From Candidatus Cloacimonadales bacterium (GTDB lineage: Bacteria > Cloacimonadota > Cloacimonadia > Cloacimonadales > JAIOQZ01), in contig OY762463.1 in NCBI GenBank assembly GCA_963665815.1, forward strand, positions 288,001-352,000: a stretch of 64,000 bases of DNA. The letters are read 5' to 3'. Below are positions 6,696 to 57,316 of the stretch, one piece after another. Within the stretch, counting starts at the first letter, position 1, and every line of letters starts with the position of its first letter. Both the position numbers and the translations under genes were made by a program. Below the pieces are notes generated by a model. It did not search any database. It saw only the letters and a list, made by a program, of their open reading frames with translations, and was not told the DNA's origin.

Positions 6696-9600
6696 ATGCC
6701 GAAAATTTTCAGGGCGGTAATAATCGGTATACTGTACTTAATTCTAACAATTTCTTCGCTATATGGCAGTTTTGAGGTTCTTATTGAGAGTAATCAGCAG
6801 TTGTCAGTAAAATTCAAATTACCTGATTACACAATTGATGAAAACAGGAGGATCCTGTTCGAAAATAATCCTGAGCCTGATGTTGATCTTCAGCAGATGT
6901 TTGGCTTTTATGCTTATATACCAACAAATTGTGAGTATACGATAACTCATGAAGTAACTTCCCGTGAGAAGATGGACTTTATTGCAGAGCAGGATAAAAA
7001 TGATCCTGTTTTTATTTCTATGGATGGCTATTCCAGAGATCACAGAATGATATTAGTGAATGTAAATCCTCTATATGTAAATGAAGATGCATCATATGTC
7101 AATGAAGAAGTGATTATCAATCTTTCTTTTACCCTGTCATCAGAGTTTACTGAGGGGGCGAATAACCACGAGTCATATAGCTTTGATCAATATGTCAGAT
7201 CTTTGGTGATTAACAGAAATACGTTGCAATCAAACACTTCACAAAGAGGATCATACCTGATAATTCATCCGGATAATTTTTCTGTTACTACCGATATGTC
7301 TGATTTTATATTATGGAAGAAGATGAAAGGTCTTGAGGTGCACACTCGGGCTTTCAGCAGTAATTCAGCAAATACAGAAATACTCCAGTATATAAGAAAT
7401 GCTTATAATACATGGGATGTTGCTCCGGAATATGTGTTATTGCTTGGAAATGCTTCAAGCTCATTTGCTGTTCCAACCTGGTATGAAGATTTTGGTAATA
7501 ATATAGTCTATGGAGATCATCCTTATAGTCTGATGAACGACGGAGATATATTTCCAGACCTGCAGATTGGACGAATAACATATGAAAGCGCTGGGCAACT
7601 TCGTTCAATTCTTACTAAAATAATCAATTATGAGTATAAACCTGATCGAGCAGGATCGGACTGGTTTGAAAGATTGCTTCTTGTTGGAGATCATATAGAT
7701 TCTGGTTCTTCAACTGTTTTAACAATGCATTATGTAAATGATATGATGGATGACTTTCCGGTTGATTACTCCTATTCACTTGTATACAATCAACCATACG
7801 TCAATGGTATTCAAAACGCATTGAATAATGGTGTCGGAGCATATTTCTATCGTGGATTCGGGACATTCAGTCACTGGACAGAAACTGACACAGAAAATCT
7901 TCTTAATTACAATATGACACCATTAATATCTGCTATTACATGTTTTACAGGAAATTTTGATCAGGATTATGTTTCTTTTGTTGAGAAATTCCTGCATATC
8001 GGAACTCCGAATACTTCAAAAGGAGCAGTTGCAGCTTTAGGTTCTACTTCTGCAACTCACACATGCTTTAACAATATTATTACTGCCGGTATTGCCAGTT
8101 CATTTTATCAGGACGGGAATTTTAACATTTCTGCCGGACTAAACAAAGGAAAGCTGCAGTTGTATAGAAATTATCCATGGAATCCGGAATACTATGTGGA
8201 TTGGTATACACTTGGTAAAGAGCATTTTGGTGATCCCGAACTTACTTTAAGATGCAAAACTCCCGGCATAATGACATCTGAGCATTCTGATACTGTTTCA
8301 ATACATAACAACTTCTTTACCGGAGTAATAGAAGATGAAAACAGTATTGGTATACCTGATGCCTCTGTTACACTATATGATGCGGCAATAGATTCTTTTT
8401 TTACAGCTATAACAGATGCTAATGGTAATTACCGGATCAGTATAAATATTGATTCACAAACTGATCTGATGTTAACTGCTTTTCATCCTCAGATGATACC
8501 TTATGCAGATACAATATATGTGATTAATGACTATTCTGATATAGATTTAAGAAGCGAATTCACAGATAACATTATATCCGGAACAGTAAACACACTTAGG
8601 TTCAGACTTATTAATAATACAAACTCGGATGTTCAGAACGTTACTGTAAGAGTGTCATGTGATTCTCAGTATGTAAATGTCATTGATTCGGTTATATCCG
8701 TTACAAATTTACCTGCTGTATCGTCATCTGAATATAATGTTAATATTGATCCCGCATTTGCGATTTCAGATGGTGGTTCTCTTATATTGCATACTGAGAT
8801 TGATTATGGAGATGTAACAGAAGCATTTTCACATTCATTCAATGTTGAAAATACGGTTCTTGAGATTGAGAGCATTAATTTGCAGACTATCCCATCTCCT
8901 CAGGCAGATATTGATTTCTCAATTGAACTTGAAAATATCAGTAATATTCCTGTTGATTCGCTGACAATGGAACTTGAAACATTTGATAACAGGATAACAA
9001 TCACAGATAGTATTGCATATTTACAGTATGTACTAGATAATTCAATGATTTTTGTAAATGATAATTTTACATTCAGTTTTAACGATATTTATAATACGGA
9101 AGATTTTCATTTCTATATAAAATTCAGCAATAATAAGGGATTTTATCAGGAATCAGAGTTTGTTGTAGAGAATTTAGATCCTTCTTTAGATCAACCTACA
9201 GGTCCGGATCCTTATGGGTATATTGCAGTTAATAATAATGATGCGGCTGTATACCAGCCTGAAACATATGGCTGGATTGAAATTGATCCAGAAAACGGTG
9301 GTTCCGGAACAGTTCTGGATATGGTCGATTATGATTATGAAGGTTCAGGTGATATGGTGACTGTTCAGTTACCGTTCAGTTTCAGATTTTACGGTGATCT
9401 CTATTACAATTTAAGCATATCTTCAAATGGATTCGTTATGCCGGGTATACACTTCAACTATGGTTGGATGAACAGGACTATTCCCGGTCCAATGGTTCCC
9501 AGACCAATAATTGCTCCTTTCTGGGATGATCTGTTAATCGGAGAAAACTCAAGAATATCTTACTTTGAAGATGATACTAATCACACTTTTATTGTGCAAT

Positions 9601-23348: not shown

Positions 23349-24395
23349 TCAATTCAATATTTTGATTTTAATTACTCTGGATCCATTATCATCAAAGATT
23401 AACATTCTATCATCTTCGGTAAAAGTATATGTCTTAACAGTTATGTCCGGAATAGTAAAGCAACCCGTTTGAATTCCATCTGAGTTGAATCTCAGTAATT
23501 ATGACACCTCATCAGATTCGGATTTGCTATTTGTGATAGCGTAAATGTTTCCTGATGCGTCAACTGCTATTCCATTTGAATTAGGCTGTAATACCAATCG
23601 CTGCTGAGTATTATCTCCAGTAAGCTGTGACTTTGATTTTGAGAACGTTTCTCTAATTATATTCAGTTCAGGTAGAGTATCACTGTAAACTGTGATTTTA
23701 TCTGTTCCAACATAGTTCAGGTAGAGTTTATTTTTCTTATGTGTCAGTGCAAGCATATTCTTCAAATATGATTCCTGTGGGTTAGATGATAATCCTGCAT
23801 CTACAAATGATTTTACATATTTTAAATCTTTATCATATTGCTTTACAAGCTTGAGTGATTTACCTGTTCCTCCGGTTCCAAGTGCAAGTCCAACAGTATA
23901 GATCATATCATTTTCGTCAATTGTAAAGCCCATAGGGAAGAAGTCTTCAGTTTTGTTTGAAGTAACAAAGTTTCCATCTGAATCAAAGACAATAAAAGTC
24001 ATTCTCTTTACATCGAATGTGATCAGTCTATCATCGCTGGTAATAATAAGAGAAACGGCATTTTCAATTTCACCGGGACCAGATCCCTTGTGTGAGAATA
24101 CTTTGATGAAATTTCCATTCTTATCGAACTTCTTGATATTGCATTCACCGGCATCAATCATGTAGATATTCCCGTCTTTGTCTTCTGCGAAGTCAGAGAT
24201 TGAGTTGAATACATATTGAGAAGTATCTTCTGATATCTCCATCTCGATCTTATACTTCAGCTCCTCAACAGGATATTTTTTGTTAATGACAGTCTTTACA
24301 CCGTTTCTTTGTTGTATTTCCGGTTTATATTTGTTTGTGTTGCATGCAGTCAGCAAGAGAATAAAAATTGTTGTGAGGGCTATCTTTTTAATCAT
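23349..24395 (-). pseudogene. 6-bladed (NHL-like) beta-propeller lipoprotein with in-frame TAA at 23499-23501
   Basis: After the stop the frame continues LLRFNSDGIQTG... for 49 codons, matching paralog C-termini (VLQVFNPEGKQI). Confidence 0.7.
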
Positions 24396-25425
24396 AATTT
24401 TCTCCTGTTCCTGAATCAGTTATGAACGATCCGTATTTTCTCAAAGTATTGTCATCACATCCATATCCGTATATTTTGTTGTTTCTAATTTTGATTTCAG
24501 TTATATAGCCTGGTAAAGCCATGTTTGCAATCTGCTTTCCTTCCGGATTAAATACCTGCAATACACTAACAGGTTCTGATTCATTAATTTTTCTCATAGT
24601 ATCCTGAACGTAAGTTATAAGATAAATATTTCCTTCAGAATCCATATTAAGGCAGTTAGAAGTTGAATTTACAAATGTACAGTAATCATCTTTCTCAATA
24701 CCACCTTTGAAATAAAGCTTTCTTTTGATATGTAAAACAGGGATCTTATCTTTTAGAACAGTTATATCATTGTCAATTGTGTTATTAATGACGATCCTCC
24801 CATTATATTCAACAAAAGAATAAGGAGTATCAAGATTTTCAATTTCAAAGAAGGAATCAATTAATTCAAACTCAGAATTAAATCTGTGAAGCAAATAGTT
24901 TCTATTTACAGAATGTTTTAATAAAATACCTGAGACTAAGTAGGTGTTATCAGGGTTTCTTAAAATCTGGACAGGACGAACTATTTCTATCTTTTTACGT
25001 GAAAGGTAATTCCCTTCCGCATCGAATTCATTAAGTATAGTTAGTGAAATATCCTGAATCAATAAAGTATTGTGGGGAGTATAATACATGTAAGCTGGCT
25101 TGTGCAGTTCACCAGGACCCTCTCCTTTTTGGGATATGGTTCTCAGGAACTTACCTGTTTCATCAAACTTGAAAATTTTACTTTGAGACATATCAAGGAA
25201 ATAAATGTTATTATCCTTATCAACCTCTATATCCCTTATGTCTGTAATAGCATAATCAGGTGATTCTCCTGGGATTTCCAGCTCAGTTTTTAGAGAAAAT
25301 TGAGTTATTGGCATTTCCGGATTAACTGCTGTTTTGACTCCATCAATCATTTTTACTTCATAGCTCTTTTGTGTACAAGCTGCTATGCATATAAAAAGTA
25401 GAACAGCTATTATCGAATTCCTCAT
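24388..25425 (-). CDS. 6-bladed beta-propeller lipoprotein
   Basis: Lipobox IAAC; DKDNNIYFLD, KGEGPGEL. Confidence 0.8.
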   Translation of the reverse strand: MRNSIIAVLLFICIAACTQKSYEVKMIDGVKTAVNPEMPITQFSLKTELEIPGESPDYAITDIRDIEVDKDNNIYFLDMSQSKIFKFDETGKFLRTISQKGEGPGELHKPAYMYYTPHNTLLIQDISLTILNEFDAEGNYLSRKKIEIVRPVQILRNPDNTYLVSGILLKHSVNRNYLLHRFNSEFELIDSFFEIENLDTPYSFVEYNGRIVINNTIDNDITVLKDKIPVLHIKRKLYFKGGIEKDDYCTFVNSTSNCLNMDSEGNIYLITYVQDTMRKINESEPVSVLQVFNPEGKQIANMALPGYITEIKIRNNKIYGYGCDDNTLRKYGSFITDSGTGENYD

Positions 25426-25446
25426 TTCTCCCCCTATTCAGGCTAT

Positions 25447-26454
25447 TTATATTGGTTTGTATCTTGTTATACTGGATGAATTGTAATTGTATGTGTAGAT
25501 GAAATCATTGTCGAGACTAATGTAACATATATTTTCATCCAGAGCCATATTTATTATCTGAATACCGTCTTTGTTAAAAACCTGCAGTACGCTTTCCGGC
25601 ATGTCTTCGGCTTTATCTTCTTTCTGATAGTTATGAGTTGTTGCAATAGTATAAATGTTCCCTTTGGAATCTGTTGCCAAACACCGAGAACTTGGAGTAA
25701 CATGGGTTCCATGACCTACTCTTTCTATTTTCCCTTCTATATACAGATGTCTTTTAATAGAAAGTTCTGTCTTTTCATTTTTCAGAATATCAATTTTATT
25801 CTCAGTTCTTTGAGTTAATATAATTTTATCTCCAAACTTAACTATTGAAATCGGTGTTGAAACATCAGATACTTGATAATACGATTTTGTAACTTTCAGA
25901 TTTGAATCAAGGGTATAAAGTGCATTTTTTATATCATTTGCTTGCCCATAGTATTTACCAGAGCATATATAAGCAGAATCCGAAGTTGATACTAAATCTC
26001 TGAGAAAGAAGTTCTCCATTCTATACTGCATTACATAATTGCCTTCCAAGTCAAATGAATGTATGATTCCTCGACTTTTTTCGCGAATCAATATTTCATT
26101 TCTGTCAGTGATAAAAATACTTCCGGGATAAGAAAGTTCACCGGGGCCATTCCCTTTGTGTGAAAGTATTTTATTCAGTTTACCAGTTGTATCAAATTTT
26201 TTAATATTACATTCTTTTGAGTCCAACACATAAATATTTCCCTCTTTATCAAAAGCAATATCTTCTATATTATTAATTATGTAACCGTCACCTTCATCAG
26301 GTATTGTCATATCTTTCACCAGTGAGAAAGGTGCAATTGGCATTTCATGGTTAATAACGGTTTTCACCCCATCGATAGTCTTTACTTCGTAGTTCTTTTC
26401 TGTACAAGCTGTTAAGCATACAAAAAGTAGTGCGTAGATAAAAATCGTTCTCAA
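25447..26454 (-). CDS. 6-bladed beta-propeller lipoprotein
   Basis: TTG start with GGAGG; lipobox LTAC; DKEGNIYVLD, KGNGPGEL. Confidence 0.8.
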   Translation of the reverse strand: MRTIFIYALLFVCLTACTEKNYEVKTIDGVKTVINHEMPIAPFSLVKDMTIPDEGDGYIINNIEDIAFDKEGNIYVLDSKECNIKKFDTTGKLNKILSHKGNGPGELSYPGSIFITDRNEILIREKSRGIIHSFDLEGNYVMQYRMENFFLRDLVSTSDSAYICSGKYYGQANDIKNALYTLDSNLKVTKSYYQVSDVSTPISIVKFGDKIILTQRTENKIDILKNEKTELSIKRHLYIEGKIERVGHGTHVTPSSRCLATDSKGNIYTIATTHNYQKEDKAEDMPESVLQVFNKDGIQIINMALDENICYISLDNDFIYTYNYNSSSITRYKPI

Positions 26455-26474
26455 AGTACCTCCATGAAATAAAA

Positions 26475-27512
26475 TTAGATTTTCACAGGTTTATATCGGA
26501 TAAGACATGAATTCTCATTTGAATAAGCATATAAGTAGTCATTAATAATAGTGAAACTGTCGATATCCATATCAATAATACCTATATTTGCTATCTGAAC
26601 CCCATTATTAGTAAAGATTTGCAGAACATATTCAATCTCTGAATCATCATGTTCTTCTCCCAATGGAAACCTTGGTGCAATTATATAGACATTGCCTTTA
26701 GAGTCAACTTCATTGTGAAAAGCTGTGTAATTTCTTTGATAATAGACATTTTTACCGCCCAGAGAAATCTCTTTGGTGCCACCCTCAACATATACATGTC
26801 TTTTAATTACTAAACTTGGTTTCTTATCAACAACTTTCACAATCAGATTCTCGGTGAGAAAATTTATAAAGAAATCTTTGTTATACATACTCAGGGCAAC
26901 TGATTTCATTGGGGATTCCTCTTTACTCAAGGTTGGACTGAATGCCGCTAAATGTTCATAAGATTCAGAAAAAGGATAGATATCCATTTTTGAATTTTCA
27001 GTACTCCAGTTTGAGCCAACACAGAAAATAGTATTGTCATCTCCTATGCAAAAATCATTGATAAGAAAGCTCTCAACCTTATGGCTGGAGATGTAATTTC
27101 CATCTAAATCAAGTGTTTTTAGTATATTCTGACCTGAATCGTATACAACTAACTCATCTCTGTTGTTGATCCTGAATAAAATCGGATAGTTCAGCTCTTC
27201 AGGACCTTGCCCTTTATGGCAAAGAGTTTTCAGGTAATTCCCATTATGGTCGAATTTCTTTATATTCGCTTCTTCATAGTCCAGAACATAAACATTACCG
27301 TCCTTATCCTCAAGAATGCTGCTGATCTGGCTAATTGTGAATTGTGATAGATCTTCCCTGAAAAGAACGTCAGGCTCAAACTCATAAACCTGAATAGGCA
27401 TCTCCTTATTGATAATTGTTTTGACTTCGTCTGTGGTTGTAATTTCGTAGTTGGATCTTGTGCAAGCTGCTATGCACATAAAAACTAATGCGTACACAAA
27501 AATTGTTCTCAA
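26475..27512 (-). CDS. 6-bladed beta-propeller lipoprotein
   Basis: TTG start with GGAGG; lipobox IAAC; DKDGNVYVLD, KGQGPEEL. Confidence 0.8.
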   Translation of the reverse strand: MRTIFVYALVFMCIAACTRSNYEITTTDEVKTIINKEMPIQVYEFEPDVLFREDLSQFTISQISSILEDKDGNVYVLDYEEANIKKFDHNGNYLKTLCHKGQGPEELNYPILFRINNRDELVVYDSGQNILKTLDLDGNYISSHKVESFLINDFCIGDDNTIFCVGSNWSTENSKMDIYPFSESYEHLAAFSPTLSKEESPMKSVALSMYNKDFFINFLTENLIVKVVDKKPSLVIKRHVYVEGGTKEISLGGKNVYYQRNYTAFHNEVDSKGNVYIIAPRFPLGEEHDDSEIEYVLQIFTNNGVQIANIGIIDMDIDSFTIINDYLYAYSNENSCLIRYKPVKI

Positions 27513-27534
27513 ATTACCTCCTGTTATGAAAATA

Positions 27535-28572
27535 CTATAGTTTTGGCGGATTATATCTTATAAGCTTAGAACTATTGAGTCCATAAGTATATATCTTGTC
27601 ATTAATAACTTTTATCCTCATAATATCCTGATCAGTAATCCCCATGTTCATTATCTGAAAACCATTTCTGTCGAAGACCTGAAGTATTCTTGACGGTTGA
27701 GTTTCATCTGTCTCTTTACCTGGAAGAAAGCCAACAGCAAGTGTATAGATATTACCTTCAGAGTCCAGACAAATACTTTCGGAACTGAAATTCGTCATAT
27801 AGCCGATTTGTCCGTTCCCGAAATCAAGTTCCTGAGTCCCCCCTTCAACATAAAGGTGTCTTTTAATAATCAGATCAGAATTTTTATCATAAATTCGTAA
27901 AATTAAGTTTTCTGTCAAATAACTTAAATAAGTTTCACTTCCTTTATTACATATTGATACAAAATTCATTGGAGAATCATCTTTGCTCAGCGATTTGTAA
28001 AAAGAGGGAAGAGGTTCAAGATTTTCAGATAATGGATAAATATCATGCTTTTCTTTAGATGTATCGCTCCAGTTGATACCTACTCTATATAATGAGTTAT
28101 CATCTCTTATACAGAAGTCCGATACATTAAGGTTTACGTCCTTATAACTATCAACGTAGTTTCCGTTTTCATCGAAAATCTTTATTGTGGACTGAGTAGC
28201 ATCATATACTATAAGCTCGTTTCTACTATTGATAGCAAGTATTGTCGGTCCATTAAGATCTTCAGGACCGTTTCCTTTCTGGCTTATTGTCTTGATAAAG
28301 AGTCCGTCATGAGAGAATTTCTTGATGTTTGCTTCATTTGAATCAAGTACATATACATTCCCATCCTTATCTTCAGCTACATCTGCTATGCTGCTGATAA
28401 TGTAATTCTGATTCTCTGTAGCAAATTCTAGATCTACGTCCAGATTGAATTCTGTAATTGGCTGTTCATGGTTATTGATAGTTTTAATTCCATTAGTTGT
28501 AGTTACATCATAATTTTTTTCTGAACATCCCATAATCAGAATAATCAATGAAAAGAAAAGTGTGTGTTTCAT
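27535..28572 (-). CDS. 6-bladed beta-propeller lipoprotein
   Basis: Lipobox IMGC; DKDGNVYVLD, KGNGPEDL. Confidence 0.8.
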   Translation of the reverse strand: MKHTLFFSLIILIMGCSEKNYDVTTTNGIKTINNHEQPITEFNLDVDLEFATENQNYIISSIADVAEDKDGNVYVLDSNEANIKKFSHDGLFIKTISQKGNGPEDLNGPTILAINSRNELIVYDATQSTIKIFDENGNYVDSYKDVNLNVSDFCIRDDNSLYRVGINWSDTSKEKHDIYPLSENLEPLPSFYKSLSKDDSPMNFVSICNKGSETYLSYLTENLILRIYDKNSDLIIKRHLYVEGGTQELDFGNGQIGYMTNFSSESICLDSEGNIYTLAVGFLPGKETDETQPSRILQVFDRNGFQIMNMGITDQDIMRIKVINDKIYTYGLNSSKLIRYNPPKL

Positions 28573-44651: not shown

Positions 44652-44831
44652 TTGTTCGTAGGCACTAACTCTTTGAATTTTCAGGGAGACCATTATTATC
44701 CGTTCAGTATGGGGATACCGGGACTTTGCTACCAGTATATGAATTGTAAGTTTATTGGTGAAAACAGAGAAATTATTGACGAAATGGATCTTGACTGGAT
44801 ATATTGGGGAAAACGGTTCCTTGAAAAGTAA
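44652..44831 (+). pseudogene. Rhs core-tail fragment (unit 0)
   Basis: DHYYPFSMGIPG...REIIDEMDLDWIYWGKRFL, then a stop and the structured element. Confidence 0.8.
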
Positions 44832-44832
44832 T

Positions 44833-44910
44833 GTGCCTCCTATGATTCTCGGATTACATCCTACGAATTTCGGAGGTGAGACTCTCGGGCTTAGTCCTAC
44901 GAGCTCATAG
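44833..44910 (+). repeat. structured insertion element, long form (copy A)
   Basis: gcctcc-tat-gattc-tc-ggat-tac-atcc-tac-gaatt-tc-ggaggt + gagactc-tc-gggc-tta-gtcc-tac-gagctc; replaces DPQIG...NFVE of the Rhs tail. Confidence 0.75.
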
Positions 44911-45873
44911 CTTGACGGAGCAGAGTCCGCATATAACTACTATGTGCAGATGATACGCATAAAAGCTCAGTTAGTTAAACGGAGAATGGAATATGAGATT
45001 AGACTTGCAGAAGATCTTGCTAAATCACATATACCCATGTACTGTTGTCAAACCGGTCCTATGTTGGGTTGGTTTGAGGACATGGATGATGCAAGTGAGA
45101 AAGCGGAACAGGTAGCAGATGAGGATAGAACTACAGTAGATGGCTCAACAAGTGTTGATGGTCCGGCAACTCCGCCAACTGAACCTGCTGTTCCAGCTCA
45201 GGAAGATCCACCAGGAGAACCATATAATACAAGAGATACAGAGGGCAAATCTGAACTTGTAAGAAGTGAGATGATAATTGACCAGGAAGCAACTGAAGGA
45301 AGTGATAAAAATTATAAAGCACTATGTAAAGCCTCTAACGCTACCTATAAGTTCTTAAATGAAACTAGATTTATTTCATTGGGATATCATCCATCTGATA
45401 AATTATTTGGGCTAGTGAATGGAACAAAGTATGATATAAATAATGGTTTTATATCAAGGAATATTTATGTTAGAGGAAAAAGAACTAATGTAGTTTTGTG
45501 GGATCATAATTCTACATATGGAAAAGAAGAGAAAGTTAGTATATTTGGCAATATACCTCTTATCGGCAGATTATTCAGTAAAACTCATACTGCTTATTTT
45601 ACGCCATATCATACGTTTCAGCATGAAACATATCACGTGAAGCAGAAAGCTTCACTGGGTGCGTTTTACCATTTTAGAGGAAGAACACTAAACGAATTTT
45701 TCTGTATGAAAGCAGTAAAATATTCTAAACTAACAATGATACTTAACTTAGACGATTCGAAGTTTGAAAATATAATGCAGAACAATGACAATGCAATTTA
45801 TCATAATTTTAGGCAATCATACGGGAACACTGATTTCATATATGATAGTGATCTCTATGGAGTCCCTAAATAA
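44911..45873 (+). CDS. orphan Rhs C-terminal domain 1, putative HExxH metallopeptidase toxin
   Basis: Begins LDGAESAY at the Rhs junction and contains HETYHVKQ. No clear RBS for GTG 44944. Confidence 0.65.
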   Translation, partial: LDGAESAYNYYVQMIRIKAQLVKRRMEYEIRLAEDLAKSHIPMYCCQTGPMLGWFEDMDDASEKAEQVADEDRTTVDGSTSVDGPATPPTEPAVPAQEDPPGEPYNTRDTEGKSELVRSEMIIDQEATEGSDKNYKALCKASNATYKFLNETRFISLGYHPSDKLFGLVNGTKYDINNGFISRNIYVRGKRTNVVLWDHNSTYGKEEKVSIFGNIPLIGRLFSKTHTAYFTPYHTFQHETYHVKQKASLGAFYHFRGRTLNEFFCMKAVKYSKLTMILNLDDSKFENIMQNNDNAIYHNFRQSYGNTDFIYDSDLYGVPK

Positions 45874-45884
45874 GGTAGGTTATT

Positions 45885-47114
45885 ATGAAAGTATATTTGA
45901 TTTTTTACCTAGTTCTATTTTCTACAATACTCTTCTCAATTGAAGAAAGCACTACATGCAAAAATACTGTTAATATAATGAAATCGAAGAATTTCCCCGA
46001 TGAAATTTACGTTAGAACCTTTACAATTGATAGATTTGGCAACATAATTTTGATCACATCAAATAGAAACCAGAAAACAAAAATTAATATGTTCAATATG
46101 ATAAAGCTGAATAGTAAACTTGAGAAAATATGGGAAGTTCAACTCAATATCAATGGCGTTGTTCAGAAAATAACCACTGATAAAATGAATGATATTGTAA
46201 TTGTAAGTGAATACTTCTCATTTGAAAAAAGTATTTCATCTATCAGTAAGTACAATCAGGATGGTGAATTAATATGGACAACTACACCGAGGACAAAAAA
46301 CGAGTTTGCGATTAGGGATATTGATTTTGATGAATCAAATAATATTTATATTGTTGGATATCATAGTGGATATGTGCGGATTGGATTAGAAATTATGAAT
46401 ACGTTTTTACCTTCCTTCAGAGATGGTATTATTGCGAAATTAACATCTGATGGTGATTGGGTTAAATGTAAAGATACTGATTTTTCGTACAGTGATTATA
46501 TCAGTAACATAGAAATCATTGGTGAGACAATATATACATGGGGAGGGTTTGAGAGTTGGAGTGGAATTCTCAAATCTTTTTTCAGTGAAATAGAAGCTGA
46601 ATATAATCAAAAGTATTATATTGCAAAATATAGCACTAACTTGAAGAAACAGCTTGAGTTTCGGTTAAATGATGAAAGCAGTGCAATCTTAGGCCCTGAA
46701 TTTCCCATTGGATCTTATGTGTTAACTTCAAAGTATAACAAAAACTTTATTGCTCTAGATTATATTGACTACTCATCTACACGTTATAATGCAAATTCCC
46801 AATTAAATGTTGATGTAATGATTATAGATTCCAACCTGAAAGTATTATACTCCGTTTTTGAAATTAAGTCTTTTAAAAACCAGTCGATAGAATCTTTTCA
46901 GAGCTGCATATACAGGTCTGTTAATAGATCAAAGTCTTGTATATATGATTTTTCTAATCAAACAATGTATATTATCAAGCCAGAAGAAAATGAATGGATT
47001 GAACACGGTTTAATTGATAATGATCTGTTATATCTTCTTAAAGGAAAAAAAAATGAAAACTCAAAAAATAACTTTTACACTTTGGATATTCTCAAAATAG
47101 ATAAATCTGAATAA
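45885..47114 (+). CDS. exported beta-propeller protein, candidate immunity 1
   Basis: Signal peptide; SBBP-like DFDESNNIYIVGY and DGIIAKL...G.W; directly follows CT1. Confidence 0.6.
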   Translation: MKVYLIFYLVLFSTILFSIEESTTCKNTVNIMKSKNFPDEIYVRTFTIDRFGNIILITSNRNQKTKINMFNMIKLNSKLEKIWEVQLNINGVVQKITTDKMNDIVIVSEYFSFEKSISSISKYNQDGELIWTTTPRTKNEFAIRDIDFDESNNIYIVGYHSGYVRIGLEIMNTFLPSFRDGIIAKLTSDGDWVKCKDTDFSYSDYISNIEIIGETIYTWGGFESWSGILKSFFSEIEAEYNQKYYIAKYSTNLKKQLEFRLNDESSAILGPEFPIGSYVLTSKYNKNFIALDYIDYSSTRYNANSQLNVDVMIIDSNLKVLYSVFEIKSFKNQSIESFQSCIYRSVNRSKSCIYDFSNQTMYIIKPEENEWIEHGLIDNDLLYLLKGKKNENSKNNFYTLDILKIDKSE

Positions 47115-47122
47115 GAATTTAC

Positions 47123-47342
47123 AGCCTGCCTCGTGCAGGCTTTTCTTTCTCATAACTCAAAAGACAGAGAAGAAATTGACGAAATGGATCTTGACTGGAT
47201 ATATTGGCAAAAACGGTTCCTTGACCCGTAAATAGGTTTTGGGAGACTCTCGCCTAAGGCTCCGAGCTCTTTGTTGGCATTCTCTTGATCCGGCAGAGCA
47301 GTTTGACAGTCCGTATGTATATTGCGGTAACAATCCTGCAAA
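47123..47342 (+). repeat. cassette boundary: hairpin + Rhs core-tail repeat (unit 1), with stop and insertion
   Basis: agcctgc-ctcgt-gcaggct-tttc, then EIDEMDLDWIYWQKRFLDP*IG-[37 nt]-WHSLDPAEQFDSPYVYCGNNPA. Confidence 0.9.
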
Positions 47343-47350
47343 TAAACAAG

Positions 47351-47429
47351 GTGTCTCCTATGGTCTTCGAACATAAGTTCTACAGACTTCAGAGACGAGA
47401 CTCTCGGACTTAGTCCTGCGAGCTCATAG
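47351..47429 (+). repeat. structured insertion element, long form (copy B)
   Basis: gtctcc-tat-ggtct-tc-gaac-ataa-gttc-tac-agact-tc-agagac + gagactc-tc-ggac-tta-gtcc-tgc-gagctc. Confidence 0.75.
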
Positions 47430-48577
47430 CTTGACGGAGCAGAGTCCGCATATAACTACTATGTGCAGATGATACGCATAAAAGCTCAGTTGGTTTTACA
47501 GAGAATGGAATATGAGATTAGACTTGCAGAAGATCTTGCTAAATCACATATACCCATGTACTGTTGTCAAACCGGTCCTATGTTGGGTTGGTTTGAGGAC
47601 ATGGATGATGCAAGTGAGAAAGCGGAACAGGTAGCAGATGAGGATGGATCTACAGTATATGGCTCAACAAGTGTTGATGATCCGGCAACTCCGCCAACTG
47701 AACCTGATATGCCAGCTCAAGAAGGACCACCGGGAGAACCATACAACACAAATGAAATTGAAGAAGGTAGTCATAAAATAGATCATAGATCAATCACGGT
47801 TGACTCTGAAGCAACTGAGTACGTTCAGTCACAAGTAAAAGAAAAACTTGATGGTAAGACAAGGTCTGATGGTGAACCTATTGAATTGGGAGCAAATGGT
47901 TTGAATATCGATAATATAGTTGTGTTGAAACATAATGATTTTGATAATCCTGCCGATTTTAATGATACTTTGGTGGAGCAAATAGTTTTAACAGCAACTG
48001 AAGGAAGTGATAAAAATTATAAAGCACTATGTAAAGCCTCTAACGCTACCTATAAGTTCTTAAATGAAACTAGATTTATTTCATTGGGATATCATCCATC
48101 TGATAAATTATTTGGGCTAGTGAATGGAACAAAGTATGATATAAACAATGGTTTTATATCAAGGAATACTTATGTTAGAGGAAAAAGAACTAATGTAGTT
48201 TTGTGGGATCATAATACTACATATGGAAAAGAAGAGAAAGTTAGTATATTTGGCAATATACCTCTTATCGGCAGATTATTCAGTAAAACTCATACTGCTT
48301 ATTTTACGCCATATCATACGTTTCAGCATGAAACATATCACGTGAAGCAGAAAGCTTCACTGGGTGCGTTTTACCATTTTAGAGGAAGAACACTAAACGA
48401 ATTTTTCTGTATGAAAGCAGTAAAATATTCTAAACTAACAATGATACTTAACTTAGACGATTCGAAGTTTGAAAATATAATGCAGAACAATGACAATGCA
48501 ATTTATCATAATTTTAGGCATCATACGGGAACACTGATTTCATATATGATAGTGATCTCTATGGAGTCCCTAAATAA
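47430..48577 (+). pseudogene. orphan Rhs C-terminal domain 2 (paralog of CT1), 1-nt deletion near 3' end
   Basis: Same HETYH domain. aggcatcatac here versus aggcaatcatac in CT1 shifts the frame, so the ORF runs to 48647. Confidence 0.7.
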
Positions 48578-48588
48578 GGTAGGTTATT

Positions 48589-49815
48589 ATGAAAGTATAT
48601 CTGATTTTTTACATCGTTTTTATTTCTACGATACTTTTCTCAGTTGAAGAATACAACACGTGTAGAAGTAGTTTTAATTTAATAAAATCAAAGAACTTCT
48701 CTGATGATGTTTACGTTGAGTCTTTTACTACTGATAGAAATAGTAATATTATTATGATCACATCAAATAGAAAGAAGAAGCCAAAAACTTTTTCCTTCAA
48801 AATGACGAAATTAGATAAAAATCTGGAAAGAGTATGGGAAATTCAACTCAATTCGTTGGGTTTTCCAGTTATCTATACTGATAATAGCAACAACATCATT
48901 ATTGTTTGTCACGAGGGCACACCTATAAAAAATATTTCTTCAATAAGCAAGTTCAGTGAAAATGGAAAACTTCAATGGACAACTAAGCCGAAAGCAAAAA
49001 ATGATTTCAGTATTTCAGATATGGAATTTGATGAATCCAATAATATATATATTGTTGGAAATCTTCATGGATATGTGAGAGTTGGATTTAATATAATTAA
49101 TACAATATTACCATCTTTCAGAGATGGATTCATTGCGAAATTAACCCCGAATGGAGACTGGATTAAATGTAAAGATACTAATATTCCGTTCGATGATTAC
49201 ATTAGTGATATTGAAATCATTGATGGATGTATATATACATGGGGAGGTTTTGAGCGTTGGAGTGGATTATTAAGATCTTTGTTTAGAGATTTTGAAGCTA
49301 ATTATGAAGCCAAATGTTATGTTTCAAAATATAATACTGACTTAAAGAAACAGCTTGAATTCAAATTAAATATTGATAGTAATGCTTTTTTGGGTGAAAA
49401 TTTTCCACTATCACCATATATTTCTACAACTGTGCACAATAACAATTTTGTTGCTATAGACACTGGGTATTCTTTTGATGAAGAGAGCAATGGAGAACAT
49501 CAATGGAATGCTGATATAATGATTTTAGATTCTATGTTAAATATCCTGTTCTCTGAGTATGAAAAAAAACTATTCTCTGAGAAATTACCCGTATCATTTC
49601 ATGATTGTATATTTTATATTGACTCAAAATTCAAATCAATTCTATACGATTTCTCAGATCAAGCATTATATTTATTAAAGCCAGAAGAAAATGAATCATT
49701 TGAAAAAGGTTTTATTGATCATGATATGTTATATATTCTTAGTAGTAAGAAAGATATAAACTCTAAAAATTATTCATTCATTTTAAATGTTTTCAAAACA
49801 GATCCCTTTGAATAA
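48589..49815 (+). CDS. exported beta-propeller protein, candidate immunity 2
   Basis: Collinear but clearly diverged paralog of 45885..47114. Confidence 0.6.
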   Translation: MKVYLIFYIVFISTILFSVEEYNTCRSSFNLIKSKNFSDDVYVESFTTDRNSNIIMITSNRKKKPKTFSFKMTKLDKNLERVWEIQLNSLGFPVIYTDNSNNIIIVCHEGTPIKNISSISKFSENGKLQWTTKPKAKNDFSISDMEFDESNNIYIVGNLHGYVRVGFNIINTILPSFRDGFIAKLTPNGDWIKCKDTNIPFDDYISDIEIIDGCIYTWGGFERWSGLLRSLFRDFEANYEAKCYVSKYNTDLKKQLEFKLNIDSNAFLGENFPLSPYISTTVHNNNFVAIDTGYSFDEESNGEHQWNADIMILDSMLNILFSEYEKKLFSEKLPVSFHDCIFYIDSKFKSILYDFSDQALYLLKPEENESFEKGFIDHDMLYILSSKKDINSKNYSFILNVFKTDPFE

Positions 49816-49823
49816 GGATTTAC

Positions 49824-50065
49824 AGCCTGCCTCGTGCAGGCTTTTCTTTCTCATAACTCAAAAGACAGAGAAGAAATTGACGAAATGGATCTTGACTGGA
49901 TATACTGGCAAAAACGGTTCCTTGACCCGCAAATAGGTTTTGGGAGACTCTCGCCTAAGGCTCCGAGCTCTTTGTTGGCATTCTCTTGATCCGGCAGAGC
50001 AGTTTGACAGTCCGTATGTATATTGCGGTAACAATCCTGCAAACTTTGTAGAGCTGGACGGAGCA
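49824..50065 (+). repeat. cassette boundary: hairpin + Rhs core-tail repeat (unit 2), with 37-nt insertion
   Basis: Near-identical to 47123-47342; insertion at 49939-49975; intact NNPANFVELDG. Confidence 0.9.
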
Positions 50066-51085
50066 GAGTCCGCATATAACTACTATGTGCAGATGATACG
50101 CATAAAAGCTCAGTTGGTTTTACAGAAAATGGAATATGAGATTAGACTTGCAGAAGATCTTGCTAAATCACATATACCCATGTACTGTTGTCAAACCGGT
50201 CCTATGTTGGGTTGGTTTGAGGACATGGATGATGCAAGTGAGAAAGCGGAACAGGTAGCTGAGGAGGAGGATTCTGAAAGCATGAATGGAGCAGGCAGTG
50301 CTGAAACTCAAGAAGAACCTGTTGCTCCTCCACAAAGTGAAACACCATCTACAAGTGGTAATTCACCTGATAGTCAGGAAAGACAAGCTGATGAGGAAAT
50401 TAATCAAAAACAAAATGAGGTAATTGAAAATGACTCAGGAAATCTGCAGTTAGAAAACCCTGGGGAACAGGAGAATGGTTACTCCGGTGGTGGCGGAGGA
50501 GGTCCAATTACAATTGATATCTCTGCTTTGACTGAGGGAGATTCTCTGAGTAATGGTGCTATTTTATTTGAGTTAATAAAAGGATATGATGTAACTGAAG
50601 ATATTGACACTCCTGCAGCTCTAGAAGCAGCATTTCACAAGGAGGGGAAGAATAATCGTCATGCATCATACACTGCACCAGAAATTGATCTAAGTCTTGT
50701 AAAAGGATTCATAATTAGTAATTTAAAAGTACAACCAAATAGTGAACAAGATAATTCACATGATGCTATTACCTTCAAGAACTATCTCAATGCAATTGTC
50801 GTAATAGATCTTATACAAGGAAAGCAAATAAATCGAAAAATTTTTGATACTATTTTTGATAATGCGTTTAGTAGTATAGTTGATGGCATTTCGGGTGGTG
50901 CATCATATCTTCCAAGAAAGGCAGCATCTAGTGGAGCTACATTGTTAAAAACATCAAATGACTACAGGCAATTTCGAGAATATATACGTGAGGATATTAG
51001 TAATGGTTTAGATGTTCGTCACGGAAATATAGTTTTTTGGAACAGGCTATATTATGATTTTGATCGACGTAGAGAGAATAACTAG
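49940..51085 (+). CDS. orphan Rhs tail + C-terminal domain 3 (unknown putative toxin)
   Basis: WHSLDPAEQFDSPYVYCGNNPANFVELDG, then the shared linker, then a unique domain. Confidence 0.7.
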   Translation: MGDSRLRLRALCWHSLDPAEQFDSPYVYCGNNPANFVELDGAESAYNYYVQMIRIKAQLVLQKMEYEIRLAEDLAKSHIPMYCCQTGPMLGWFEDMDDASEKAEQVAEEEDSESMNGAGSAETQEEPVAPPQSETPSTSGNSPDSQERQADEEINQKQNEVIENDSGNLQLENPGEQENGYSGGGGGGPITIDISALTEGDSLSNGAILFELIKGYDVTEDIDTPAALEAAFHKEGKNNRHASYTAPEIDLSLVKGFIISNLKVQPNSEQDNSHDAITFKNYLNAIVVIDLIQGKQINRKIFDTIFDNAFSSIVDGISGGASYLPRKAASSGATLLKTSNDYRQFREYIREDISNGLDVRHGNIVFWNRLYYDFDRRRENN

Positions 51086-51098
51086 TAAAGGAATAGAA

Positions 51099-52307
51099 AT
51101 GAGAAATATTAGATTAACGGGTATTGTTTTAATATACTTTATATTATGTAGTTTGCTTTCTTATGAAGGAGTAAGTAATGAAATATTAAGAAACAATGAA
51201 GAAAACTATATTGCAACGACCTTTGCTTTAGTAAAAAAACTTAACATCCCTCAAAGAAAAATAAAGTTTGCAATTAGTCACAAAAATAGTAAATTGATAG
51301 AATTTGCAAAGACTTGTAATGATACTCTAAAGGAAATACCTCTTGAAAAAAGTTTTGAACATACTGCTCAAAAGTATATGATGCATAGTATTATGCACAA
51401 TCCTATTGGCTGTATTAAAGACGCTGTCAAAGAGTTTTCTGAAGCTGAAAAAATGTACAATGAATACATAATCGAGTCTGAGTCAATAGCAGATAGCCTT
51501 GGTATTGAATTAACTGATAGTTTATATTTTGAGTACGCATTAGGATTAGTCAGTAGAGTAAAACATCTTGAGATTACCTATAATTACCTTTTCAGAAGCC
51601 TCCTTCTATGTGAACAATACGATATAATACTCGAAGAAATAGAGAAATTCAAAATAATTTTCCTCTCAGCAAGACTTTTAGAACCCGGAATCACACTGTC
51701 ATCAGATATTACTTATGCTGATAATTTCAACTATTATTTTGCATTGAAAGCTTATTGCTACGATAAGATAGGGGAAATTGATAAGTCAGATATGAACCTG
51801 AGAGAAACATATTTATTCTTTGAGCATCCATATATAAACTCAATTTTCTATTCCGAAGTCTTAGCAAGAATATTCATAGAGTGGGAGTTAGATTACATTG
51901 AACCTAAGGTTTTTATAGATAATTTTATTAACCACATTTATATAGTTGCTGGACCGGAATTCATGCTGAGAAGTCATTTTTTAAGGAAAATTCATCCTGA
52001 TAATTACCTGAATATAATTGAAAATGAGTTGGATGCACACTTTATAAGAGTAAATAAAAAAAAGAACAATGCTGAAAGAGAAGGTTACATTAATAACTTT
52101 GAAAGGATATTCATGCATCTGGCATTTCTGCATTACGAAAAAGGAAATAGTAGTGAAGCAATGCATTGGTTCAAGAGATCACTTACTGAGTATTCAACAT
52201 TTGATGGTGACTGGGATTACTGGCTAAGGTATCGATATTATGAGAAAGGTGAAAAAGAAGCTTTGCTGAAACTGAAAGAGCAGTATTTGAAAGAAAAAGG
52301 GAAATAA
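51099..52307 (+). CDS. exported helical/TPR-like protein, candidate immunity 3
   Basis: Signal peptide from ATG 51099; LAFLHYEKGNSSEAMHWFKRSL is TPR-like. Confidence 0.55.
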   Translation: MRNIRLTGIVLIYFILCSLLSYEGVSNEILRNNEENYIATTFALVKKLNIPQRKIKFAISHKNSKLIEFAKTCNDTLKEIPLEKSFEHTAQKYMMHSIMHNPIGCIKDAVKEFSEAEKMYNEYIIESESIADSLGIELTDSLYFEYALGLVSRVKHLEITYNYLFRSLLLCEQYDIILEEIEKFKIIFLSARLLEPGITLSSDITYADNFNYYFALKAYCYDKIGEIDKSDMNLRETYLFFEHPYINSIFYSEVLARIFIEWELDYIEPKVFIDNFINHIYIVAGPEFMLRSHFLRKIHPDNYLNIIENELDAHFIRVNKKKNNAEREGYINNFERIFMHLAFLHYEKGNSSEAMHWFKRSLTEYSTFDGDWDYWLRYRYYEKGEKEALLKLKEQYLKEKGK

Positions 52308-52314
52308 ATTGATC

Positions 52315-52333
52315 AGCCTGCTCCGTGCAGGCT
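52315..52333 (+). terminator. cassette-boundary hairpin (unit 3)
   Basis: agcctgc-tccgt-gcaggct followed by T-rich sequence. Confidence 0.7.
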
Positions 52334-52353: not shown

Positions 52354-53577
52354 AAAAACAGAGAAATTATTGACGAACTCGATTTAGACTGGATATATTG
52401 GGGAAAACGGTTCCTTGACCCGCAAATAGGTAGGTGGCACTCTCTTGACCCGGCAGAGCAGTTTGACAGTCCGTATGTATATTGCGGTAACAATCCTGCA
52501 AACTTTGTAGAGCTGGACGGAGCAATCTCATTATCATATCATCAGGAGCAGTATGCTAAATTACAAAGTTTGTACCGGGGATTCAGGGGAATATACACTG
52601 ATAGTAATGGATGGAATGATGTTGCAGAGTTTGAGCAAATGATGGATAGAGAGATACAAGAGTCTGGGCACTGGTTGCTTTGGGTGACTGCTGGAAGAAG
52701 TGCAATAAAGGATAAGAAAAAGGGGAAAGCTGAGGATCAACAAAAAAAATGGGAAGTAGAAGATGTAAAAAAAGGTTTGGAAATAAAGAAGAAAAAAGAT
52801 GATAGAAAGAAGTTCATTTTAAGTATAGTCAATGCAATTGTAAATAATCCACTAACCAATGTTGCCAGTACTATCCTGCAAGGAGCTATTGATATTGTAG
52901 GCTTAGAAGGTATTCTTGGTGATAATGGAATTGTTTCTAATTTTATAAGTAATATGTTTCAGGATCAGCCTAAAATAGAAATTACTACAGTTAGTGATGG
53001 AATATACTACTCACCAAGAATGCACGACTGGATCAATGTTCCACAAGGATCTAGTATGCAGCACCCTATTCCTTCAATTCAAGCTCAACAGCAATATGGT
53101 AAAGACCATACCGATAGAATAAGTATGGAAATAGTTAATTATAGCGATTATTATGGTATCTGGGGTGAAAACCAGGAGCATTATGAAAGATTTGCTGTTG
53201 GAGTCGATGCAACATCATCAACAGTCAGTGTAGCTGCTTCCAGTATATCAATGCGCATTGCTTATTTGAGAGGAAGCAATAAGGGAATGTTAAGATATGG
53301 GCAATTAACTGCTGCACACCTATCGCTTGCTTTAATGAAATGGACTGCATGTGGAACTGGGCAAAAACCTATTGATATTCCTCACATTACTGAAGCTGAA
53401 TTAGCCTTGACTATTCCAGCTAAACTAAAATGGGATGTTGAAGATTATATCTTTGCAGGAGTAACTTACGGAGGGGTTACAATGACTAAAATTGTTTATA
53501 ACAATACTCACTACTATTACAGATTCAGTCAGGAAATGAGAAGAAAACTTCTTGGTAAAAAGAAAGTAATGAAGTGA
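52354..53577 (+). CDS. orphan Rhs tail (uninterrupted) + C-terminal domain 4
   Basis: Frame opens after TGA 52351: REIIDELDLDWIYWGKRFLDPQIGRWHSLDPAEQFDSPYVYCGNNPANFVELDGAISL..., continuous with the 52570 ORF; no conventional start before the tail. Confidence 0.8.
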   Translation, partial: KNREIIDELDLDWIYWGKRFLDPQIGRWHSLDPAEQFDSPYVYCGNNPANFVELDGAISLSYHQEQYAKLQSLYRGFRGIYTDSNGWNDVAEFEQMMDREIQESGHWLLWVTAGRSAIKDKKKGKAEDQQKKWEVEDVKKGLEIKKKKDDRKKFILSIVNAIVNNPLTNVASTILQGAIDIVGLEGILGDNGIVSNFISNMFQDQPKIEITTVSDGIYYSPRMHDWINVPQGSSMQHPIPSIQAQQQYGKDHTDRISMEIVNYSDYYGIWGENQEHYERFAVGVDATSSTVSVAASSISMRIAYLRGSNKGMLRYGQLTAAHLSLALMKWTACGTGQKPIDIPHITEAELALTIPAKLKWDVEDYIFAGVTYGGVTMTKIVYNNTHYYYRFSQEMRRKLLGKKKVMK

Positions 53578-55967: not shown

Positions 55968-56066
55968 GCCTGCCACGTGCAGGCTTTTCTTTTAATCAGA
56001 GGCAATGCAAAGAAATTATTGACGAAAAGTGGCTTTAACTAGATATATTGGGGAAAACGGTTTCAG
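55968..56066 (+). repeat. degenerate cassette boundary (hairpin + Rhs tail remnant), right edge of island
   Basis: gcctgc-cacgt-gcaggc-ttttc...gaaattattgacgaa...gatatattggggaaaacggtt. Confidence 0.8.
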
Positions 56067-56206: not shown

Positions 56207-57316
56207 ATGAAAAGAATCAATTATCCATTTTCAGCTATTGCCGGGCAGGATGAATTAATATTAGGTCTACTACTTAATGCTGTTAATCCCGGACTCGGTG
56301 GAATCTTGATTAAAGGAACAAAAGGTACAGGCAAGAGTACTGCCGTATACTCATTTGCAGATATTTTCCCGGAAAACAATGTGAATTCAGGCTGTAAGTT
56401 TCAGTGTAATCCTGATAAACCGGAAGAATGGTGTAATGATTGCAAAACAAGGCATGGATCAACCGAGTTTAGCACAGAATCAAAACCCGTAGAAATCGTT
56501 AACATCCCCATAAGTACTACAGAAGAAAACCTGCTTGGTACTGTAAACATCGAAAAACTTCTTAAAGAAGGGGAAATGGAATTTGTCCCCGGTATACTAT
56601 CTTATGCCCATCGAAACATTCTTTATATTGATGAGGTAAACCTGCTTTCAGACTATATCGTGGATGATATTCTTGATGTTGCAGCAACAGGGTGGAATCG
56701 CATTAAACGTGAAGGTTTCACAGTAGAGCATCCATCAAGATTTATTCTTATCGGTACAATGAATCCGGAAGAAGGCGAATTGAGACCGCAGATTCTGGAT
56801 AGATTCCCGCTTTCTGTAACGGTAAATTCTGTAAAAGATGCTGGGAAAAGATCAGAAATCATCCGAAGAAACATCATGTTCGAAAGTGACAGGGAAAAAT
56901 TTACAGCGGATTTTTCTGAGAGGAACAGACAGCTTCAGGCAACAATAAAGGTTGCACGGGGAATGCTGAATAAAGTCTGTACTGACCAGAAATATATAGA
57001 GCTGATTGTTAACTTATGCAGTAGTTTTGACGTTGATGGCCACAGAGCAGACATCGCTATATTGAAAACGGCACAATCACATGCTGCTCTCGAATTGAGG
57101 GTAAAAGTGGATGAAAGACATGTTCGTCAGGCTGCATTACTTGTACTGAGACATAGAACAAGGCAGGGTGGACTCAAAAAGCCTCTGACTGATGTTGAAA
57201 TAAATGAATTCTTTGATAATAATCTGATACAGGAAAGTGGCAATACATCCATCATTATAAACAAAGATATGGAAACTCCGGGAGGTGAGCTGCTTCAGCT
57301 TGAAAAAAAGTCTTAG
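56207..57316 (+). CDS. ChlI/BchI-like chelatase AAA+ ATPase
   Basis: YPFSAIAGQ, GTKGTGKST, LYIDEVNLL, GTMNPEEGELRPQILDRF, VDGHRADI, LRHR. Confidence 0.9.
   Translation: MKRINYPFSAIAGQDELILGLLLNAVNPGLGGILIKGTKGTGKSTAVYSFADIFPENNVNSGCKFQCNPDKPEEWCNDCKTRHGSTEFSTESKPVEIVNIPISTTEENLLGTVNIEKLLKEGEMEFVPGILSYAHRNILYIDEVNLLSDYIVDDILDVAATGWNRIKREGFTVEHPSRFILIGTMNPEEGELRPQILDRFPLSVTVNSVKDAGKRSEIIRRNIMFESDREKFTADFSERNRQLQATIKVARGMLNKVCTDQKYIELIVNLCSSFDVDGHRADIAILKTAQSHAALELRVKVDERHVRQAALLVLRHRTRQGGLKKPLTDVEINEFFDNNLIQESGNTSIIINKDMETPGGELLQLEKKS

Follow-up and report, generated by a model that had tools for sequence, protein, structure and literature searches.

A hairpin repeat family with a covarying fold resides mainly in the core tails of orphan Rhs cassettes in one genus of Cloacimonadales

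Integron attC sites are imperfect hairpins that are defined by their structure and lie in cassette arrays. Among repetitive extragenic palindromes (REPs), bacterial interspersed mosaic elements (BIMEs) and REP-associated tyrosine transposases (RAYTs), Escherichia coli TnpA-REP is described as needing a GTAG and a bulge and cutting at CT near the REP (PMC8266576), and as cleaving at a distance from the resident REP with possible capture of flanks (PMC3333891). Ssn nucleases, members of the GIY-YIG superfamily, cut single-stranded DNA (ssDNA) beside oriented hairpins and modulate recombination, according to part of PMC11893778. Here we describe a hairpin element that lies in the core tails of orphan Rhs cassettes in a 64,000-nucleotide stretch of a Candidatus Cloacimonadales genome (contig OY762463.1, positions 288,001 to 352,000), referred to below as the window. 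In behaviour it resembles a REP/BIME or SRM repeat, yet it falls outside these classes on two counts, the cognate enzyme and dispersal.

Comparison with a clean tail confirmed all four inserts that an original prediction, made from the letters of the window, had placed in Rhs tails, with some boundaries revised:

44825..44908, + strand: hybrid copy of the long element, which combines a three-stem hairpin with a terminal hairpin; joined on the left after the RFL codons and on the right at LDG, with the intervening tail lost
47238..47274, + strand: short element, made up of the terminal hairpin alone, in place of the Arg codon of G-R-W; +34 frameshift
47343..47427, + strand: long element in place of 8 nt of tail at the LDG junction, with TAG immediately preceding LDG
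49939..49975, + strand: short element, identical to the copy at 47238-47274
52354..52521, + strand: clean Rhs core tail (family 2) used as the empty-site reference; the only window tail that matches TIGR03696

The long copies had been given as 44833-44910 and 47351-47429, which omits the left flank and includes an AG present in the clean tail; one short copy had been given off by one, as 47239-47275, and the other correctly. Replacement of the Arg codon by the short form (net +34 nt) and the TAG that precedes the LDG codons in both long copies were as described.

A single module makes up the element: a stem leads through a purine-rich 2x3 internal loop to a very small inner hairpin, and the long form nests this module three times. 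All 52 modules in element clusters are 2x3; 68 modules, mostly AT-rich, occur elsewhere in the genome of the window (G000; a single contig of 3.96 Mb, with the window at C1:288001-352000), against about 40 expected. The internal loops, originally called fixed, are nearly but not strictly so: TAC, TGC and TCC all occur, one decayed copy has its loop paired up, and the 2x3 loop is lost in only 1 of 23 distinct long variants.

Covariation across 17 distinct long copies supported the claim that stems change in a compensatory manner and that structure is conserved above sequence. Overall, 97.6% of cells are paired and both sides change in 7 of 20 pairs. The cells with changes on both sides, which reflect few haplotypes of related copies and were counted by a statistic that is not phylogeny-aware, number 35, compared with 11.8 in shuffles (0 of 500 reach the observed value) and at most 3 when the partners are slid. 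Counted by hand from the module lists, the distinct compensated changes come to about ten. Taken one at a time, the copies show no advantage in folding over shuffled sequence (z of +0.3 to -2.3), so the evidence for the structure is comparative and not energetic. The original prediction did not recognise the element as a named family, and it has no Rfam covariance-model match. It also lacks features of miniature inverted-repeat transposable elements with terminal inverted repeats, as its ends are not inverted repeats, target bases are lost and a possible 3-nt repeat is found with the short form only.

A covariance model built from the copies, as had been proposed for checking the prediction, yielded 28 matches in G000, 10 in a sister species of the same genus (G001, record titled Candidatus Cloacimonadales) and 0 in 149 other genomes of the class, placing the family in two of the genomes scanned. 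With tails defined independently of the element by tblastn, 21 of the 28 G000 matches lie within 100 nt of an Rhs core tail, zones that together cover 0.32% of the genome; at 5 kb the count rises to 25. The control, an ordinary repeat scattered over G000, had 0 of 17 copies within 100 nt of a tail and 2 of 17 within 5 kb, indicating a preference for Rhs tails over genome-wide scatter. Every tail-overlapping match (21 of 21) is in the orientation of the tail. The three matches more than 5 kb from a tblastn tail comprise two that immediately precede LDG, in cassettes whose decayed tails escaped tblastn, and a five-fold tandem small-hairpin array (3456 kb) beside a duplicated tRNA-Arg 3′ end; G001 has a copy in a like place. 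The element is present in 17 of the 28 tail clusters of G000 and absent from 11, orphan arrays occupy at least seven loci far from a full-length core, and the full-length Rhs cores examined in G000 and G001 are all clean.

Beyond the genus, wider collections searched by pattern and by protein yielded nothing further. Exact patterns retrieved three stretches from genome contigs, all of the sister species, and one metagenome match that is a chance hit in another transposase, in a search whose exact patterns diverged relatives would escape. Two exact-pattern searches of viral contigs gave 12 and 3 matches, all chance by context; a plasmid search gave no match, and a phage search two weak ones. 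A pattern search of the phylum matched 7 of 232 genomes, with no hairpin in the five outside the genus, and the translated insert found seven proteins, six from G000 and one from the sister species. The element has so far been found in one genus. Separately, tRNA-Arg(CCT) has 3′-half duplicates 32 kb apart in G000 (C1:3423542-3456200), and G001 (locus L072) carries four tandem 178-nt units, each starting with a tRNA-Arg 3′ end.

When insertion contexts were tabulated, as had also been proposed, Rhs tails predominated and several junction classes emerged. There are two tail families, family 2 being that of the window and family 1 that of cassettes with an upstream ATG. Right-hand junctions fall into at least seven classes: before LDG, RW, WYH, YH and NDP in tails, inside a small opposite-strand gene fragment that the arrays carry, and at the tRNA-Arg duplicate. 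The element occupies at least five positions along about 130 nt of tail, with 0-3 copies per tail, which argues against the specific role at the toxin junction that had been envisaged. Left ends are ragged, and the flanks they carry look like tail sequence of other sites. Many cassettes, in both species, have identical junctions, so copies far outnumber insertion events, and the four window copies cannot be counted as four independent insertions.

Indeed, the first window copy is best read as the collapse of a tandem pair. A G001 cassette at the orthologous locus holds two long copies in tandem; the window copy matches the first of these in its left junction and long hairpin and the second in its LDG-type terminal hairpin and right junction, and it lacks the tail between them. 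The different left breakpoints of the two long copies, correctly noted at the outset, are thus read, from the G001 pair at the same locus, as the result of recombination between direct repeats and not of separate insertion. In our reading, three further sites (2108185 and 1057766 in G000, 813863 in G001) are collapses of the same kind. Also in G001, at positions 6967-7100 of locus L041, an element-bearing Rhs tail runs straight into the middle of a vWA gene through a deletion that has removed a MoxR gene, which in the window lies at 56207.

Three unlike toxin starts, which have only 13 nt in common, follow the LDG junction and its particular terminal-hairpin subtype; two of the three classes also occur with a clean junction. 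Either exchange took place within the 13 nt, or the same base was hit repeatedly. Toxin swapping does not depend on the element, since toxins are also exchanged at this place in clean tails. Contigs of one sample cover the region in pieces, with loose ends that match other G000 loci, and no empty allele is distinguishable among them.

The effect of the element on the reading frame differs between the two tail families. In family 2, 0 of 14 element-bearing tails are open into the toxin (one duplicate row dropped), which fits the proposal that the element silences toxins; in family 1 the proposal fails, as 9 of 11 complete element-bearing tails are open and 10 of 11 keep their length modulo three (a count that leaves out one truncated tail). 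Five of six length-changing events in family 1 are in frame (hand count; P about 0.02, post hoc), and selection on the effects of the inserts is plausible. All four window tails contain a 10-of-12 match to a sigma-70 promoter just 3′ of the terminator and upstream of the element. The same consensus scan gave 81 matches against 58 expected, and the match in the tails may reflect only the coding sequence. A leader peptide running from an ATG in the element to the TAG before LDG was dropped as a candidate, as it holds for one variant only. An internal promoter 89 nt before the junction motif of a Salmonella rhs gene yields toxin (PMC7043789), and orphan immunity genes are believed to be expressed (PMC3150448).

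In the hairpin on the strand opposite the Rhs gene, the foot reads GTAG or GCAG and most loops are NNA triloops with a C-G closing pair; in DNA, C(GNA)G triloops are known for their high stability. GTAG is the commonest foot tetranucleotide on this strand, and GCAG, GGAG, GTAA and GCAA are frequent. The opposite strand folds to lower energy in 16 of 17 copies as DNA and in 14 of 17 as RNA. Cumulative GC skew in G000 has its minimum at 2.61 Mb and its maximum at 0.54 Mb; a lagging-strand rule was rejected, as copies occur in both orientations relative to the fork.

No cognate enzyme is visible in the window, as first noted, and a search of G000 and relatives for a Y1/HUH transposase flanked by the element found only Y1 loci with other hairpins: two RAYT-like loci in G000 and 15 from four relatives, with no model match and 0 modules. 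None of the three to four GIY-YIG matches in G000 is flanked by the element, the four DUF559 genes in G000 and two in G001 have other hairpins, G000 yielded 0 reverse transcriptases and 0 IS110 genes, and an IS256-like gene adjoins one array only. The suggested integron-type tyrosine recombinase was not found beside the copies either. Of four tyrosine recombinases in G000, one was examined and is not integron-type: this integrase, at the edge of a 68-kb Rhs island and 1.4 kb from the last cassette, scores 76 bits against an integron cut-off of 265 bits, lies after tRNA-Val and is convergent with the array. Each of the two RAYT-like genes in G000 (loci L001 and L002) has its own flanking hairpin family, and the L001 hairpin also flanks truncated DUF559 genes at 1.48 Mb.

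Related modules do accompany small nuclease genes elsewhere. G001 has two mini GIY-YIG genes, beside tRNA-Asp and tmRNA, with flanking hairpins related to, but different from, the element; matches to the encoded protein occur in 89 of 232 phylum genomes and not in G000. Module matches were found at 10 of 31 mini GIY-YIG loci (11 matches against 1.3 in shuffles, both loop types), eight with a 3x3 loop and three AT-rich ones with a 2x3 loop. These modules are cousins of the element and not the element itself. The mini GIY-YIG genes adjoin tmRNA or tRNA in 28 of the 31 loci (L218, L223-L251), and a structured leader runs from the final base of the RNA gene; in G000 the leader is retained after tmRNA and the nuclease gene is absent. 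At G001:C13:1239772-1242990 (L217), two tRNA-Asp genes precede four tandem partial tRNA copies in which a hairpin stands in place of the T-loop; a GIY-YIG gene of 87 aa and a further copy of this kind come next.

Set beside described systems, the element shares with REP/BIME-RAYT systems, as portrayed in parts of PMC3333891, PMC8266576 and PMC6006769, a small imperfect hairpin with a GTAG-like foot and a conserved bulge, mosaic tandem modules, local amplification, and variable ends with flank capture. In contrast to them, it is neither extragenic nor scattered, its modules are nested or in the same sense and not in inverted pairs, its foot is often a GCAG outside the GT[AG]G consensus, and no RAYT is flanked by it. 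A REP-like nature is plausible, but neither RAYT of G000 has the element at its flanks. The intragenic REPs and Rickettsia palindromic elements reported in part of PMC3733652, in-frame palindromic inserts of 12-47 codons and sometimes two or three per gene, resemble the family-1 case, but they occupy many unrelated genes, whereas here the inserts are restricted to one repeated motif region and family 2 is out of frame. The NTS and SRM repeats of Ssn nucleases are likewise hairpins with a set orientation that cluster at variable surface or conflict genes; NTS, in contrast to the element in its Rhs tails, seldom lie within genes (PMC11893778, in part). As with the mini GIY-YIG cassettes, whose genes are flanked by a related GTAG-loop module, the one non-Rhs copy of the element lies at a tRNA 3′-end duplicate, but the loop beside the nucleases is 3x3 and that of the element 2x3, and no nuclease gene adjoins the element. 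The cassettes themselves resemble the orphan Rhs and contact-dependent inhibition (CDI) cassettes treated in PMC3150448 and PMC7043789, which form arrays of tail, C-terminus and immunity gene, mostly without a start codon and with a possible internal promoter. No description of hairpin repeats within the Rhs homology tail was found in the literature searched (with thin coverage of subscription journals). The main texts of PMC6006769 and PMC3733652 do not mention Rhs, and a preprint that names both REPINs and Rhs treats them separately (10.1101/2024.07.17.603846).

We consider it probable (about 0.6) that the element is a REP/SRM-like, non-coding and non-autonomous hairpin repeat, carried as a passenger and amplified by recombination of the Rhs array, and now feeding back on the array as portable homology. 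A single-strand hairpin nuclease, a RAYT-type HUH enzyme or a small GIY-YIG protein that has since been lost or is unrecognised, would have put the founder into a spare Rhs tail and might also have produced short local hops, to which the distant cutting and flank capture of TnpA-REP would be suited. Ordinary recombination and duplication among the repeated tails would then have spread the element, so that no targeting is needed; the five-fold tandem array at 3456 kb is likened to BIME amplification. The copies could now act as portable homology, with tandem pairs collapsing and tail or cassette DNA between copies being deleted. Selection would filter the outcome, leaving full-length cores clean and keeping most family-1 cassettes, which have their own ATG, in frame, while family-2 tails would tolerate stops and so be removed as in-frame toxin donors with their immunity genes intact.

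Several observations weigh against the passenger model. The internal loops are kept in almost all copies, more than would be expected of passengers. No nuclease gene is flanked by the element, and no model match above 10 bits was found in 30 Y1, GIY-YIG and DUF559 loci. The foot tetranucleotide departs from the REP consensus in its many GCAG copies, and by eye some right junctions fit cleavage between C and T while others do not, on either strand. Two features, an invariant G-T pair and changes from A to G opposite T, point to pairing on the Rhs-sense strand. Plain homologous recombination gives a poor account of how one LDG junction type came to precede three unlike toxin N-termini, and most Rhs tails examined in other Cloacimonadota are clean.

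In a different, and in our view unlikely, explanation, the element is an active cassette-shuffling signal: a host single-strand nuclease would nick beside the hairpin and start strand exchange at the toxin junction, driving C-terminal displacement and the dispersal of orphan cassettes. The LDG junction with its unlike toxin starts is the strongest point for such an active role, and the uniform orientation of the tail copies, the orphan arrays far from full-length cores, the insert-bearing tails that lie away from a clean main cluster in other lineages (below) and the ability of SsnA to cut beside its hairpin and modulate recombination (PMC11893778, in part) count in its favour. Yet 11 tail clusters lack the element, clean tails are joined to different toxins as well, most relatives keep arrays that lack it, a copy at LDG leaves a stop before the toxin, no enzyme flanked by it turned up in the 30 nuclease loci, and the contigs of one sample show no distinguishable empty or rearranged allele. 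A further possibility, also unlikely, is that the element acts in cis as an RNA leader, transcribed from a promoter in the tail, folded in the 5′ leader and selected for blocking toxin translation or stabilising the RNA while immunity is still expressed. The promoter matches of the four window tails, the Salmonella internal promoter (PMC7043789, in part), the closed family-2 tails, the invariant pair, read as G-U, and a pyrimidine/purine basal stem that resembles an anti-Shine–Dalgarno/Shine–Dalgarno pair would suit a leader, but the promoter match is also fixed by coding sequence in a scan only modestly above expectation, family-1 copies are translated through, copies sit at many positions including a tRNA duplicate and an opposite-strand gene fragment, and the opposite strand is the one that folds lower as RNA.

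Processing as an integron attC-like site by the tyrosine recombinase at the edge of the 68-kb island is barely credible. An imperfect hairpin with fixed unpaired bases, present at roughly one per cassette and with an integrase 1.4 kb away, recalls such sites. The integrase, with its score far below the integron cut-off, its tRNA-Val and its convergent orientation, is not of the required type, the elements lie inside the homology arm of the cassette at several offsets with no fixed boundary or crossover point, number one to three per element-bearing tail and have ragged left ends, and no attC core-site pair was seen by eye; the attC-like reading found no support. It is also improbable that neither enzyme nor selection on the fold was involved and that the compensated changes arose by hairpin-templated repair (template switching) in neutral DNA copied between tails. 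The decayed copy at 3358272, in which the loop has been converted to pair with the other arm, the clustering of changes in few blocks and the unremarkable folding of single copies are as template switching would leave them. That process should erase loops, which are nearly always retained, and it leaves seven distinct insertion junctions and the thrice-nested module unexplained.

Unrelated inserts occupy Rhs tails of other lineages. An 18-nt replacement at the WYH position occurs at six places in genomes G003, G006 and G007, with all six pattern matches in Rhs tails, and the insert-bearing tails of these genomes lie away from the clean main cluster of G006. In G010, the only copy of a common repeat sits in frame in the Rhs tail. 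The inserts in these four genomes suggest a permissive niche. A profile search found at least four extra residues in 17 of 150 tails, with a query that favoured inserts, so that the figure is no estimate of prevalence; five short proteins, one from a Marinifilum record, look hairpin-coded, from a query with the same bias and with DNA available for one only. Hairpins in orphan tails recur and are not the rule.

We regard as speculative the broader idea that hairpin repeats recognised by single-strand nucleases, RAYT or mini GIY-YIG, have been recruited to Rhs core tails in several phyla, where they start breaks that detach, disperse and swap cassettes. If true, it would offer a mechanism for Rhs C-terminal displacement with almost no junction homology and a host benefit for otherwise unexplained REP-type systems, with the present element as one lineage's version, its fold still selected; if hairpins start exchanges, the joining of new Rhs toxin ends at the core junction would be linked to a host role of REP-type repeats. 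At the least, the element is a structured repeat that seems not to have been catalogued before and that inhabits a single protein-coding motif of 130 nt. It records the recombination history of toxin arrays, in tandem-copy collapse and in frame selection that differs between two Rhs families of one genome, and it points to a wider pattern of unrelated inserts in the orphan Rhs tails of other lineages.

The orphan array of the window spans 44.7-56.1 kb, and its cassettes run in the order short core tail, C-terminal frame, presumed immunity gene and terminator. Toxin and immunity roles are assigned from position, and neither the C-terminal frames nor the presumed immunity genes have a family match above cut-off in Pfam or NCBIfam. 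The features are:

44776..44805, + strand: sigma-70-like promoter match in the tail, 5′ of the element (consensus scan, 10/12 matches); others at 47176-47205, 49877-49906 and 52370-52399
44911..45873, + strand: orphan Rhs C-terminal frame 1 (presumed toxin), following LDG
45885..47114, + strand: presumed immunity gene 1, 409 aa, beta-propeller-like, intact
47123..47141, + strand: intrinsic-terminator-like hairpin closing the cassette; others at 49824-49842, 52315-52333 and 55968-55984
47430..48647, + strand: orphan C-terminal frame 2, which nearly duplicates frame 1 and carries a 1-nt frameshift close to its end
48589..49815, + strand: presumed immunity gene 2, 408 aa, intact
50057..51085, + strand: orphan C-terminal frame 3, with a clean LDG junction and a tail frameshifted by the short element
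51054..52307, + strand: presumed immunity gene 3, 417 aa
56008..56065, + strand: truncated tail remnant at the array end

Positions 44911-47114 and 47430-49815 form a tandem cassette duplication in which the C-terminal parts of the toxins are about 99% identical and the immunity genes only 72-84% alike. In the 68-kb region of G000 (C1:2057162-2127465), two full-length Rhs genes, of 3337 and 1354 aa, occur together with many orphan cassettes, with genes of a type II secretion or pilus-like kind and with the tyrosine integrase beside tRNA-Val. In G001, Rhs tails at L155:6656 and L155:8213 are fused directly to a signal-peptide-like N-terminus, which suggests exported mini-toxins without a core. 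At G000:C1:3358101-3358272 and eight other places, a fragment of the 3′ end of a 473-aa gene and a small downstream frame lie reversed between Rhs cassettes. Elsewhere in the window, five tandem beta-propeller (DUF5128-like) genes encoding proteins of about 300-345 aa occupy 23499-28572 on the minus strand.

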